A stretch of 63,183 nucleotides of DNA, filler included, from Perkinsus olseni (Eukaryota), in assembly GCA_013115125.1 (NCBI GenBank). It is 41 parts of 41 records of this genome, joined end to end, with 100 filler letters (N's around TTAATTAATTAA, not from the genome) between each part and the next. Parts side by side here need not be neighbours in the genome. Positions count along the whole stretch, not along the records: positions 29,776 to 31,224 come from JABANN010001893.1; 40 more parts are not named here. One strand, 5' to 3'. The notes under the pieces were generated by a model that was not told the DNA's origin, ran no database searches, and worked only from the letters and a program-made list of their open reading frames with translations. Of this stretch, positions 2,473-31,224 are shown piece after piece. Positions within the stretch are counted from its first letter, which is position 1. Each line of letters begins with the position of its first letter. The position numbers were made by a program, and so were the translations under genes.

Positions 2473-2545
2473 GCCGGGATAGTATAGTGGTTATGACGTC
2501 TGCCTTACACGCGGAAGGTCGCGAGTTGAATCCTCGCTCCTGGTA
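2473..2545 (+). tRNA. tRNA-Val(TAC)
   Basis: Same sequence as the copy at 2304. Confidence 0.8.
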
Positions 2546-2641
2546 GGTGCTTTCCGTTTGTAGCCCATGTACCAGATCTGCATTCAGAAAGATATCTCAA
2601 GGATGCGGATTGTAGATGAAGCAAGTTCTTCGGGCTTCATC

Positions 2642-2714
2642 GCCGGGATAGTCTAGTGGTTATGACGTCTGCCTTACACGCAGAAGGTCGCGAGTTGAGT
2701 CCTCGCTCCTGGTA
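2642..2714 (+). tRNA. tRNA-Val(TAC)
   Basis: Cloverleaf with T loop TTGAGTC. Confidence 0.75.
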
Positions 2715-2810
2715 GGTTATTTTCGTTTGTAGCCCATGTACCAGAGCTGCATTCAGAAAGATATCTCAAGGATGCGGATTGTAGATGAAGCAAGTTCTTC
2801 GGTCTTCATT

Positions 2811-2883
2811 GTCGGGATAGTCTAGTGGTTACGACGCTTGCCTCACACGCAGAAGGTCGCGAGTTCAATCCTCGATCCTGGTA
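2811..2883 (+). tRNA. tRNA-Val(CAC)-like terminal copy, probably degenerate
   Basis: Anticodon loop CT-CAC-AC, with mismatches in the anticodon and T stems. Confidence 0.6.
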
Positions 2884-2967
2884 GGTGCTTTTCGTTTGTT
2901 TGACCGGTCAATTTATTGGGCGAGTTTAAAGCGAGGCGCGCGCGATCGCGATTAGGAGGGAACATAT

Positions 2968-3049
2968 GGGGACGAGACCTGAGTGCCTCCACGTGGCGTC
3001 CCTGGACAACGGAAGGAACCCGGGTTTCCTCCGTTGACTAAAGCTCAGG
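2968..3049 (+). ncRNA. HDV-like self-cleaving ribozyme (predicted)
   Basis: P1 GGGGAC(2968-2973)/GTCCCT(2998-3003) with first G-U pair. P2 CCTGAGT(2978-2984)/GCTCAGG(3043-3049). P3 GCC/GGC around L3 TCCACGT. P1.1 CC/GG(3004-3005). P4 CAACGGA..GGAA/TTCC.TCCGTTG. J4/2 ACTAAA with candidate catalytic C3038. Confidence 0.8.
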
Positions 3050-4262
3050 GTAGGTTGACCGAGCNNNNNNNNNNNNNNNNNNNNNNNNNNNNNNNNNNNN
3101 NNNNNNNNTTAATTAATTAANNNNNNNNNNNNNNNNNNNNNNNNNNNNNNNNNNNNNNNNNNNNTTTAACGCTCATACAAGGACCGGAACGAGTTCGCGG
3201 CGACGCGTAGTCCTACAGCGCTGCAAGGACAGATGGAACATACTCCTTCTTTGAATCCACGTATCCCACGACAGCCTGAAAGGCGAACAGCGGCGGGTAG
3301 GCGTGACTCTCAGGAAGGTTCTCCCCACGAGCGCCGAGTGTCCTCACTTTCCCCCGTTCAGCGGTCGGGTCCACCGCGACGAAGGTTCGCCCATTAGTAG
3401 GCTCTGCCATCCACCGGCCAAGCAACATATCGCCAGGTTTCCAAGGTCTGTATTCAAGTTTGGACGAAATATTGTTGTCTGCCTCGACTTTCGAAAGTGA
3501 ACTATCAGTCGGGGTCTGTAGAGCTGCTCCGGCTGCCGTGCTCCTGATCGCGGTGTGTATTGAGCAGATGCAGGTGATGATTTTCATAATCTCAACCCCA
3601 CGTAAGGAAGCGCAACTGAAAAGAGCATGCCGAAGGCTTTAGAGCTTAAGGTAGCCGGTATACGTATGATCAAGCGCCTCAAACTGAGCGAGTCCTCTCT
3701 CGCACCTTACGTCCCGTCTCGTCTCTTTTACAGTATCGCAACTCCCTGGGAATTGAGCTGTTCAGAATTTTTGGCGCAAGCTTATTGTCGCAGACGTACG
3801 GGATGGGCAGAGGCCTCCGCAGAGGAGAGTCAGGAGATGGCTCCTCAAGCGTTGGTTCCTGCTCGGTTGATAGCATTTTCGAGTGGGTCTACGGGAATGT
3901 GACTCGATACTGTGCTCTGCTTAGATCTCCCAGGAGGCTCGGTGATCAGAGATTGATGCTTCGACGATCAACACAATGAAGGGTAGTTATCAACAACATC
4001 ACGCAGCAGTGCATCGTGTCAGCTGACAGCACGTGGAGATCATGAGGAGTCCTTATTCAGGACGGAGCGTGCTTGCTGAGTAGGGTATACTGCGTCCATG
4101 CGTCTGCGAGTTAGACGGGACCGTAGCAAAAATGATGCGGACAATACGGGCATCACGGTGATAGGACATAATAGAGAAAGAAGCTCGTCTGAGCATACAG
4201 AGACGTCGCGGAAGTTGCCCACTTCAACTTGAGCTCTAATTTGAAGTGCACCCGAAATCGTT

Positions 4263-4309
4263 GGTTCTATCGTTCAGCCTTACCAATGGTAAGGCTGAAC
4301 GATAGAACC
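4263..4309. repeat. Perfect 23-bp inverted repeat with 1-nt centre
   Basis: GGTTCTATCGTTCAGCCTTACCA-A-TGGTAAGGCTGAACGATAGAACC. Confidence 0.95.
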
Positions 4310-5448
4310 CATGGTAAGTTACCATTGACTAAATCCAAGTTGCCTCTATTGTGAAGCTTTACACTATGGATGTCAGCCTGGTCTTCAACTACGAGGTATA
4401 CCGCGACAACTGCTGGCCATCCCTAGCGCATCTACGGAACACACGAGAGCGTGCCCGGTACATGAATTCATCTTGTTCTGGAGCCACCCTCATCAAGCAG
4501 TGTTGTAGTTGCCACAACACGAGGTGCTGTGCACTCACCTCTTTGAGGCCTTTCTGCAGCATTGTCGGTCCGGCCTTTCTATTCCGCCAATCGTCCCTTG
4601 TCATTGCATACGAGATACAAACAACCACATGATTCCCGCGTCCGNNNNNNNNNNNNNNNNNNNNNNNNNNNNNNNNNNNNNNNNNNNNTTAATTAATTAA
4701 NNNNNNNNNNNNNNNNNNNNNNNNNNNNNNNNNNNNNNNNNNNNCGTTGGCGGGCGCATTTTGCGTACCCGTAGGCGGAATTCCATCTTACAAACCGCTC
4801 GAATAAGTGCCAGTGGGGTCGGTAACACACGAGTGGAAGAGAACTCCTTCCCATGGGGTCGGGTGGAGGGCATCAGAGACGCCATCATAAACAGCTGATT
4901 ACTTTAATGTCTTTTGAAGACCTCATCATCAGAGTTCCAGCTGCTGCTGCGTTACTGTCTTACTTCCCTCTGGTTACCGCGATAGGTGCAATGGCTCCTG
5001 ACAATCCCGATGATGTGAGAGCTTCTTTGTCGGCAAATCTCTAGTTGAGCTAACTGAGTTGGTCGGTAGGAGGACAGTTGAACGCGTTTTTCTAACGCGT
5101 TTTTCTTGACATGTTAAGTATCATCCAACTCGGAAACTTCGAGTTTGCGAGAGCACCATGTTACGTGTCTTTCGCCCTCAGGCTTATCCCCCGTGGTGCC
5201 GAAGCTCTTTTTTCGATACCTTGACAAACACGGCTTTTTGCAGCTACAATAACTTCCTTGATCGTAGATCGACTATGACTAGGAGCCTCACTATGGCGGT
5301 TGAGGATAACATGGTTAATGCAGCCGTTGTTGATTGCCCTGAAGCTAATAGTCGGCCCGCATTCTACATAACGTAAGTGAGGAATATCTGAGAATTTTCC
5401 GTATCAGTAGCGAGTCTCGGAGAATCAGACCCTCTGGCAGATCATCAC

Positions 5449-26090: not shown

Positions 26091-26439
26091 CAAGTGTATT
26101 GCATAAAGTTGGTATGCAATACACTGAGGAAACGAGTCGCTGCATCTGATTGCGAAGTGAAGAAGGTCGGGTACCAACTTGGAAGTTGATTGACGAAGTG
26201 ATATTCTATGCGTGTGAGGAGAATGGTGTGGCGCAGGCCATACTGTCGTTCGATTATTAGTAGTAGTACCACACGTCAATGGCATCACGCGTGGATGAGG
26301 GTTTTAAGTGAAGTATCCTCCCAGATGTTACAACTCAAGGACAAGACATTACCGAAGAAACTAGTGATACTTCAGCAGTCGTGCTAGTTGCATTTGCATC
26401 GTTTGTAGTTGACTTTGCAAGTCTCTAATCACGTCAGTG

Positions 26440-26572
26440 GTGTCGTGGGAAGGCTTGTCGTGGGAAGGCTTGTCGTCGGTAGAAGGCTTGTCGTCGGTAG
26501 AAGGCTTGTCGTCGGTAGAAGGCTTGTCGTCGGTAGAAGGCTTGTCGTCGGTAGAAGGCTTGTCGTCGGTAG
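26440..26572. repeat. 18-bp minisatellite (AGAAGGCTTGTCGTCGGT)n preceded by two 15-bp variants
   Basis: Direct reading. The minus strand would encode (LPTTSL)n followed by a stop, a possible mucin-like C-terminus. Confidence 0.92.
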
Positions 26573-29467: not shown

Positions 29468-29913
29468 GGTAGGCCTGGGTGACCGCTTTCCGCGTCTTTG
29501 GAAATTTGCGAGTTTTTGGTGGAATCAGAATTCAAAATCTTGACTGGGCGACAGCTGAAATTTTCCTGACCGCCAAGTAATGCAATATTGGGAACTATTT
29601 TGTCTAGGCGATGCTGATGAATCGGCCTAAGGCCGATGCTCGGTCATCTTCGATGCCGCCTCGCCCCCTTCGAGANNNNNNNNNNNNNNNNNNNNNNNNN
29701 NNNNNNNNNNNNNNNNNNNTTAATTAATTAANNNNNNNNNNNNNNNNNNNNNNNNNNNNNNNNNNNNNNNNNNNNTCTCAATCAAAAAACTGTAAAAGCC
29801 CTATAGTTGTTCGAAAAGAACGACGGATGTTGTAATTTCCACGGTCGTATTCCACTTGCCCGAGCTGTTGACGTTCTGCCTGTTGGGAATGTTCACTCAC
29901 CCGTGGATGCGCG

Positions 29914-30876
29914 GTGGTAGTGGGAGATAATGCGATAGCTAGGGATTCGGTAGCGAGAGATGCGGAGTTGGCCGGTTTGAACATCCGATTCATAGCTGCA
30001 AATCCTAGAGCGCCATGGAGCACCGCCGCGGAGACCCATCATCGAAGCGCTGTGAGGGCGGCCAGGACGATTCTGAGACAGTACAGAGTATCGGACTGGA
30101 TGGGCGATGCGATGACTTCATTGAAACAAGATCTGGCGGATGAAATCGCGTGGACGCTCAATAGATCACCTTTGTCATCGGCGGACATCAGCGATCAAGG
30201 ATACGTCAAAGCTCTAAAACCCGATGACCTGAGATATGGTTACATTCGCAGAGAGGGGGGCGGAGCTACGCTGATGGACAGCACGGAGCAGGCAGAGGAA
30301 AAGTCGTGTGGTAAGTGGCAGAGGCGTAGGGAGGCTAACCTACGGCGGTTCTTGAATGATTTTTGGCCGGAAAAGCGCAGGAAAGTGTTGGTGTCACTAG
30401 GACGAGCGGCGGCTGTGAGGAATGATTTTATATTCCGCGTCGGAGATCCAGTGATGGTTTACCAACCGACGAGAAAGCACGACATGCTGTGGCGTACGGG
30501 CTTCATAGTTCAGTGTCTGAGCACACGACGCTATCGGGTCCGCATCGTCGGAAGCAAAGGGGAGCGCGTAACGGCAGAGAACCACTACAATTTATGTCCG
30601 CTGGAAGTGAGGAGAGATTATGACACGATGCCACTACCAGATAGAGCAGGTATGAGGATCCGATGCCGATTGAGGCACGAGGACGGTACATACCAGCATC
30701 ATTGGGGCACTGTAGTGAAAGATTTGGCGGAGAAAGTGCTCGTATGCTGGGATGAATCGGATCAAGGTCAAAGTGCATTCGAGTTATTGAAGCTGGAGGA
30801 GGAGCAGTGGGATCTGGGCGATTCCGGAGATACTGACCGCATCCTCGAGAGGGGGGCGTGTCGCGGCACCGAATGA
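29914..30876 (+). mobile_element. LTR retrotransposon integrase core end and C-terminal domains
   Basis: VGDNA...ANPRAPWSTAAETHH (second D and E of DDE), LNRSP, FRVGDPVMV...W..G.IV. Confidence 0.8.
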
Positions 30877-31224
30877 TGAGGCTATTTTTGGGCGTGCGCG
30901 AAAAGCTCCAAGGAGATCCAGCATGAGAAGTATATCTATTATGTTAAGAGTATATGATTGAGTTCCCATTGTAGCTAATTAGTTAGGAGCATGCAATGCG
31001 GACCGTAGCCATCTTGGCTCAAGTGTATTCTGTTTTTGCTCTCCCCTCTTCATGAGTAGTCGCGTTGACGATCCGTCCAAGACCGACGAGTCGGTCAAAC
31101 CCAACATTAAGCTATGTACTTGCGTGCCCTAAGCTTGGGTTTTCTCCGGAGTTGCAGACTTTCAGTAGCCTTTTGATTTTTCCTCGTTCGAGCCTCCTTG
31201 ACTTGAGGTTCGTTCGTCCCGCAC
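30847..31224 (+). mobile_element. Polypurine tract and start of 3' LTR (TGT at 30859)
   Basis: GAGAGGGGGGCG immediately followed by TGTCGCGG at the end of the integrase ORF. Confidence 0.7.
31002..31023 (+). other. Exact spliced-leader sequence without splice donor (relic or encoded SL)
   Basis: ACCGTAGCCATCTTGGCTCAAG followed by TG, not GT. Confidence 0.93.

Follow-up and report, generated by a model that had tools for sequence, protein, structure and literature searches.

A spliced leader within a probable long terminal repeat of a Perkinsus-specific retroelement

Organization of the contig and its integrase reading frame

The window, i.e., the whole stretch of 63,183 nucleotides of Perkinsus olseni DNA under analysis, consists of 41 unlinked contigs of 1,395–1,483 bp each, sorted from long to short and joined by linkers of the form N44-TTAATTAATTAA-N44. 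Since separate contigs are joined, any feature crossing a linker is an artefact. The contig at 29776–31224 (1,449 bp) is the only stretch of the window bearing on the long terminal repeat (LTR) described here, and as the window is made of small linker-joined contigs, position 31224 marks the end of a contig and not the end of a feature. Evidence on other copies was drawn from contigs of public sequencing runs aligned to 29776–31224, from protein relatives and from published papers. The runs X1 and X3 are DNA runs from two studies; X9 and X11 were taken as RNA by guess only, with no run being on record as RNA.

The retroelement portion of the contig is framed by repeats of other kinds. At the left end, a high-copy repeat (29776–29902) abuts the 5′-truncated integrase. 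It lies outside the element's open reading frame (ORF), since two stops are found in frame and homology to the best protein relative (P0001, see below) is lacking. Contigs of X1, X9 and X11 break behind 29902 (29903 in X11), and the summed depth over 29776–29902 was 1135.9–2384 versus 205.7 for the internal part; this copy of the element is 5′-truncated at 29902/3. At the right end, 31107–31224 represents a piece of another dispersed repeat outside the LTR, with a high-copy core at 31109–31154 and a summed depth of up to 2523. Loose ends before 31109 were found for four contigs each in X1 and X3, and others lie behind 31154/31155. Both 29776–29902 and 31109–31154 are very deep segments (maximum of about 2400–2500 in X1) with many other contexts, and both also occur within long X9 contigs (6307, 1381 and 2089 nt). 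Elsewhere in the window, eight tRNA-Val genes (anticodon TAC in seven, CAC in one) form an array with a spacing of about 169 nt on one small contig (1627–2884), a U6 snRNA gene is located at 45641–45743 on the minus strand (108.4 bits), and an 18-nt tandem repeat of the GTCGGTAGAAGGCTTGTC type (26439–26572) reaches a contig end.

The plus-strand ORF at 29914–30876 corresponds to the last two thirds of a Pol integrase, starting in the end part of the catalytic core and extending through the C-terminal domains. It ends with a TGA at 30874–30876 that is followed by a second TGA. Pfam found no family in the 320-aa ORF (29914–30873). Using phmmer against 1.84 billion representatives, 25 matches were obtained at E ≤ 0.001, with P0001 as the best one (80% identity, E 5.5e-170, query residues 2–320 on 140–457 of 457); homology to it begins near 29911. 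The relatives are Perkinsus proteins of 900–2030 aa. Nine of the matches were looked up, and the seven with a name all belonged to Perkinsus marinus, P. olseni or P. chesapeaki, one being named “Reverse transcriptase domain-containing protein.” Among 14 long relatives scanned, seven showed a Pfam match at E ≤ 0.001 (Integrase_H2C2 in six, rve in one, RT_RNaseH_2 plus DDE_3 in one), always just upstream of the part aligning with the window; only P0014 scored above the Pfam curated cut-off (27.6 versus 25.5), the others below. A CxxC and a D..D..E pattern were recognized by eye in P0001. Based on the phmmer relatives and their domains, the ORF can be assigned to the end of a Pol integrase that is divergent and specific to Perkinsus. 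The integrase ORF of the original prediction was thus borne out via its relatives, though Pfam was silent on the ORF itself.

The integrase ORF runs into the LTR, which contains its last five codons and the stop. The residues encoded by 30859–30873 are identical to the tail of P0001 despite an overall identity of 80%, which argues for an old integrase–LTR junction that is part of the element. Ahead of the LTR, a 10-nt polypurine tract, GAGAGGGGGG, was read from the sequence at 30847–30856 (plus strand). It is followed by CG and, after this 2-nt gap, by the TGT of the LTR at 30859–30861, just as the prediction had described. A purine tract directly before the 3′ LTR is a mark of LTR retrotransposons, and from its position this tract may act as plus-strand primer.

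The probable terminal repeat, the encoded spliced leader and the presumed coding start

The 3′ LTR comprises 248 nt (30859–31106, plus strand, TGT...ACA), with boundaries defined by the contigs of X1 and X3. In both DNA runs, contigs were found with foreign sequence before 30858/30859 and behind 31106/31107. A variant copy of 30858–30934 is preceded by unrelated sequence (1390 nt of it in X3), and behind the ACA at 31104–31106 at least three different continuations were observed. As the sequence breaks at both ends in two DNA runs, the unit is 30859–31106, a bounded repeat that has TG...CA ends and is found in further contexts as well. The boundary proposed at 30859 is therefore of the LTR type, and the proposed extent to 31224 had to be shortened to 31106, with 31107–31224 belonging to the other repeat. 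The short length of 248 nt, the conserved start codon 28 nt behind the SL and the 5′ truncation of the copy had not been part of the original prediction. One continuation behind the terminal ACA begins with TGG, resembling a primer binding site; by eye, no fit was seen with the eight tRNA-Val genes of the window. Only one copy, the 3′ LTR on the 1,449-bp contig, is visible in the window itself.

The contig is covered by overlapping unitigs at 29873–30887, 30859–30934, 30905–31083, 31078–31181 and 31164–31224. The unitig 30905–31083 includes the spliced leader (SL), preceded by 97 nt and followed by 60 nt of further sequence; its depth was 583.2 in X1 and 302.6 in X3. For the internal unitig, 205.7 and 79 were reached, respectively, and for the unitig of the junction between LTR and flank 185.2 and 97.2. 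The resulting ratio of SL unitig to internal unitig of about 2.8 (X1) and 3.8 (X3) corresponds to approximately 3–4 SL-bearing LTR cores per internal copy; as contig depth is not equal to copy number, this ratio lends weak support to an SL-bearing LTR in multiple copies. Together with the homologous SL-bearing loci of P. marinus described below, the unitig depth supports the view that the SL is part of a multi-copy repeat and no one-off.

The first 143 nt of the LTR (30859–31001, plus strand) constitute the presumed U3, with an AT-rich stretch at about 30896–31000. The GC content of 0.39–0.40 over 30896–31015, compared to about 0.5–0.6 in the integrase ORF, agrees with the AT-rich stretch noticed earlier before the SL, and the presumed U3 may function as promoter.

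An exact 22-mer, ACCGTAGCCATCTTGGCTCAAG, is located at 31002–31023 on the plus strand, 143 nt inside the LTR as counted from the TGT. It is the L-type 22-nt SL of P. marinus, PmaSL1, as printed (PMC3101222; PMC9399869), and both R and the mRNA of the element presumably begin with it. None of 100 shuffled sequences contained any SL match. The SL is directly followed by TG at 31024, i.e., there is no GT donor behind it, and the arrangement of an SL RNA gene (exon, GT donor, conserved intron) was not found at 31002–31023. The pattern scan hence reproduced the exact, donor-less SL of the original prediction at the same distance from the LTR start. With up to three mismatches allowed, the second and last site of the window was found at 37141–37162 (plus strand) on another contig (35954–37385). 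There, the SL is followed by GTAAATATCAGGTCC and represents the exon of a real L-type SL RNA gene, which by eye fits the degenerate 3′-RACE primer PmaSL-LS-F1 as given in PMC3101222. The intron of this gene differs slightly from the L-type intron primer of the same paper. Comparing both contigs by blastn, just the 22 nt were found in common. The S-type 21-nt SL and truncated SL relics were absent from the rest of the window. A relic SL of a retroposed mRNA would lie at the 5′ edge of the retrocopy, often truncated at the inner AG or in tandem, with a gene body and a poly(A) remnant behind it. The SL at 31002 does not show this pattern: it is complete and single and is not cut at the inner AG, and the repeat starts 143 nt upstream of it and ends 83 nt behind it.

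Behind the SL, a 5′ untranslated stretch of 28 nt (31024–31051, plus strand) leads to an ATG at 31052. The reading frame starting there, MSSRVDDPSKTDESVKPN... (31052–31106, plus strand), contains no stop up to the final base of the LTR and presumably represents the beginning of the first, gag-like ORF. The end of the LTR falls into this ORF after 18 codons plus one base. In the 3′ copy at hand, the frame enters the flank and stops at 31130–31132, giving a peptide of 26 aa; in a 5′ LTR, by analogy to Ty1, it would continue into the internal region.

Intron-less SL copies have been described for the genome of P. marinus. Zhang et al. (2011; PMC3101222) counted more than 60 for PmaSL1 and more than 40 for PmaSL2, none of these more than 100 copies being SL RNA genes, and “numerous 22 nt SL sequences encoded in the genome” were mentioned elsewhere (PMC2868825). 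According to the accessible text of Zhang et al., most of the copies start with T and lie in tandem repeats, and no clear RNA products were found, a description that does not neatly fit the copy at 31002. The primers for “S-type SL-like” loci printed in the same paper (S-like-F1 to F4 and shortSL1a/s) are colinear with 31008–31070 and carry a 21-nt variant of the SL. The primer shortSL1a/s has its sole match in the window at 31050–31070, with 3 mismatches and 0 matches expected. Both sequences read MSSRVD from the common ATG, and all three base differences are synonymous; in random variants with three changes, the peptide was kept in 0.64% of cases. Compared to the window, shortSL2a/s contains one extra in-frame codon. 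The stretch from SL to ATG measures 22 nt in the P. marinus primers versus 28 nt here and differs by indels. According to the primers, an exact functional SL is thus retained in diverged relatives, where it precedes a leader homologous to the present one and a coding start under constraint. The primers for the L-type “SL-like” loci (L1-like, L2-like, LongSL1/2) did not align to the LTR beyond chance; their loci are another family or something else.

RNA ends, mechanism and alternative explanations

One X9 contig consists of 9 adapter-like letters followed by 31012–31083, i.e., it begins inside the SL. The depth of X9 was 0 over 30854–31000, and cover set in from 31012 on. No cover was found over 29923–30167 and 30462–31000, and the internal part was nearly bare (4.3–4.5 over 30170–30415). 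Further X9 contigs run from 31054 beyond the end of the LTR and continue in different sequence. We are aware of the fact that this patchy cover fits the guessed RNA status of X9 and that contigs cannot show true RNA starts. Also P. marinus ESTs retain at most 13 nt of the SL (PMC2868825). RNA 5′ ends in the SL are weakly indicated by these data, and an RNA carrying SL and R need not be full-length element RNA. The placement of the SL at the boundary of U3 and R, as originally proposed, gains some weight from X9 contigs that begin in the SL and from the bare 143 nt upstream, to the degree that the guess of RNA is right. Nevertheless, the X9 picture is compatible with a start at the encoded SL and with trans-splicing onto its terminal AG alike.

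At a probability of roughly 0.7, we consider the contig to be the 3′ end of a Perkinsus-specific LTR retroelement in which the host SL is an integral, family-wide part of the LTR at the start of the mature RNA. The depth, the X9 contig and the P. marinus primers point to an SL that is a feature of the family and marks the 5′ end of the element mRNA. The LTR would accordingly consist of a U3 of 143 nt, the SL, an untranslated stretch of 28 nt and the start codon of the first ORF. The most economical origin would be an element RNA that obtained its SL by trans-splicing and was then reverse transcribed. The complement of the SL at the 3′ end of the minus-strand strong-stop DNA would be carried into the new copy, both LTRs would become U3-SL-R-U5, and the SL would from then on represent the first 22 nt of R. 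Since an RNA headed by the SL matches the SL copy of the 3′ LTR at first-strand transfer, the arrangement would be self-perpetuating. Such an RNA might arise by a transcription start at the encoded SL or, more likely, by splicing of a fresh SL onto the AG that ends the encoded one. In addition, the gag-like mRNA may share its 5′ end with host mRNAs by virtue of the SL.

Several other explanations were weighed against this reading. That the contig is a chimera, with an SL read joined to a retroelement fragment, might be suspected for a very short contig with repeats at both ends. However, the full path was reproduced without differences by the overlapping unitigs of X1 and X3 from two studies, which rules out a chimera for practical purposes and leaves such an artefact with a negligible probability. 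A one-off event, in which a single LTR of a family otherwise devoid of the SL received part of a trans-spliced host mRNA or was altered by a template switch onto such an mRNA, would be in line with the single copy visible in the window and with the relic SLs of retroposed mRNAs, which are common in the sister group (PMC3229502; PMC7245778). Such an event is nevertheless highly improbable in view of the 2.8- to 3.8-fold depth of the SL unitig, which includes 97 nt of upstream LTR, and of the diverged P. marinus loci with the SL before a homologous untranslated stretch, ATG and peptide. Moreover, just 83 nt separate the SL from the end of the repeat, and no poly(A) remnant is found there.

We also regard it as quite unlikely that the unit is no LTR at all but the 5′ end of retrogenes (SL, leader, ORF MSSRVD...) from a dispersed or tandem family, located by chance beside a dead integrase fragment. 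The conserved ATG and peptide behind the SL would suit such a family, as would the tandem arrays of intron-less SLs reported by Zhang et al. (PMC3101222), the far higher abundance of SL-R RNA than of internal-part RNA in X9 and the second LTR not being seen on the 1,449-bp contig. A retrocopy, however, would be expected to begin at the SL and to retain its ORF. The unit instead begins with a TGT that lies 143 nt ahead of the SL and is separated from the purine tract by exactly 2 nt, and it ends with ACA inside the ORF, with at least three continuations; in addition, the integrase ORF ends within the unit, its tail being identical in the 80% identical paralogue. Another alternative concerns the RNA alone: RNA polymerase II may initiate at or next to 31002, so that an SL-headed RNA is made without trans-splicing, which was the stronger claim of the original prediction. 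TATA-like words 40–70 nt upstream in the AT-rich stretch, the missing RNA-like cover of X9 upstream of the SL and the completeness of the encoded SL, which lacks the truncated relic left after inner-AG splicing (rule in PMC3229502), are in favour of such a start. Nevertheless, the same RNA picture would result from a precursor trans-spliced at the AG ending the encoded SL, and short-lived precursors would be invisible in contigs. The 21-nt SL of the P. marinus relatives is easily explained by renewed copying of a trans-spliced RNA, but a 1-nt deletion would equally yield this variant. Overall, we consider a hard-wired start unlikely.

The preferred reading of an SL-bearing LTR has consequences for replication. 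In LTR retroelements, the terminal redundancy R required for strand transfer normally depends on transcription beginning at an exact position of the 5′ LTR. If a host SL was taken into R, the element would have solved this problem in another way, with its RNA end being determined by RNA processing. Going further, we tentatively propose a scenario that we ourselves hold to be somewhat doubtful as a whole: a whole Perkinsus LTR family may carry the SL in R and owe the 5′ end of its genomic RNA to trans-splicing at the AG of the encoded SL and not to a precise promoter start, with the SL as the homology for first-strand transfer and with most of the more than 100 orphan SLs explained in this way. 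If so, even read-through transcripts crossing the 5′ LTR could be trimmed into replication-competent RNA with a host-like cap. Since the 22-nt homology is common to every host mRNA, template switches that retropose host mRNAs would be possible. Independently of this scenario, the LTR element probably explains many of the orphan SL copies long known in the Perkinsus genome and, if true, would provide a concrete identity for copies to which two papers on P. marinus had given no explanation. It would further serve as a marker by which active elements of this oyster parasite can be recognized, and would connect retroelements in a testable manner with the mRNA recycling seen in the sister dinoflagellates.

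Spliced leaders outside Perkinsus and comparison with known systems

The SL together with its 9 following bases gave no match in genome contigs, all of which were prokaryotic. Using a degenerate SL pattern, 245 loci with 301 occurrences, 257 of them distinct, were found in metagenome and viral contigs. A total of 255 of the 257 distinct sites were of the dinoflagellate T-type and two of the Perkinsus C-type. Neither a tblastn search of the 25 Pol relatives against the 245 loci (0 matches) nor a Pfam scan of the 72 longest of their 261 ORFs of at least 250 aa (no RVT, no rve) revealed a related element. Accordingly, the metagenome and viral loci neither support nor refute an SL in an LTR outside Perkinsus. 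The two Perkinsus-type (TCTT) sites are those of L016 (minus strand, site 394) and L045 (site 838); a truncated SL-like relic lies behind one of them, and the other continues with GT as in an SL RNA gene.

As an observation in its own right, the exact dinoflagellate SL 21-mer was found many times in giant-virus MAG contigs, IMG/VR loci L127–L245, with contig names including GVMAG-M-3300023179-82 and -3300023174-52; in L133, for instance, the SL at 2503–2523 is followed by an ORF at 2527–5022. An ORF of at least 100 aa begins at most 150 nt behind the SL at 99 of the 113 giant-virus sites (median 49 nt), compared to 133 of 565 random positions serving as control. The ORFs behind the viral SLs include those for Rpb1, Rpb2, capping enzyme, AEP_C962R primase-helicase, NAD ligase, topoisomerase I and PIF1. 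Either the host SL is hard-wired into viral genes here, or viral sequence has been inserted into dinoflagellate DNA; in the open-access literature, no report of DinoSL in giant-virus contigs was found. In L193 (631–3021, minus strand), an IMG/VR contig of 5319 bp, DinoSL lies directly before an ORF of 788 aa with RdRP_1 (E 4.9e-07). This locus fits the published DinoSL-bearing dinoflagellate +ssRNA virus cited in PMC9651163.

No paper placing an SL in an LTR was found in the open-access literature, and the accessible texts on Symsagittifera, Alexandrium, Polarella, Dada and Echinococcus TRIM had no bearing on such an arrangement. Known systems nevertheless share single aspects with it. SLACS, CRE and CZAR are non-LTR retrotransposons of trypanosomatids specific for SL RNA genes, where the SL is target DNA outside the element. 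They likewise combine a retroelement with an SL, but the Perkinsus SL lies inside the LTR and lacks the intron of the gene. In Ty1, the first ORF (TYA) has its start within the 5′ LTR and continues past both the LTR end and the primer binding site, and the Perkinsus element resembles Ty1 in that its presumed first ORF begins inside the LTR. To our knowledge, Ty1 carries no spliced leader, and its yeast host does not trans-splice.

Relic SLs of retroposed mRNAs are known from dinoflagellates (Slamovits and Keeling, 2008, as cited in PMC3229502 and PMC7245778). Like these, the Perkinsus copy is an intron-less genomic SL located shortly before a start codon and probably derived from reverse-transcribed trans-spliced RNA. 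Dinoflagellate relics, however, lie at the 5′ edge of a retrocopy and are often cut at the inner AG, whereas the Perkinsus SL is found 143 nt inside a bounded retroelement repeat, is complete and would be propagated by replication of the element. The intron-less “SL-like” loci of P. marinus (PMC3101222), at least those of the S-type class, are probably the same thing; in the accessible text of PMC3101222 and PMC2868825, they are tied neither to an LTR or integrase nor to a coding start. In Cer1, a Ty3/gypsy element of C. elegans, the RNA of an LTR retrotransposon also meets SL trans-splicing. There, SL1 was found only on the spliced 2.4 kb subgenomic mRNA and not on the 8 kb genomic RNA, and the accessible text reports no SL in the LTR (PMC3315495). 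Finally, a Symbiodinium +ssRNA virus carries DinoSL at its 5′ end (Levin et al., 2017, as cited in PMC9651163), i.e., a genetic parasite holds the host SL in its own genome (“molecular mimicry”); being an RNA virus, it differs in having no LTR and no strand-transfer role for the SL. Relic SLs, SL1 on Cer1 mRNA and DinoSL in an RNA virus are thus already on record, and, as far as the accessible literature goes, what the Perkinsus element adds is an SL inside an LTR.
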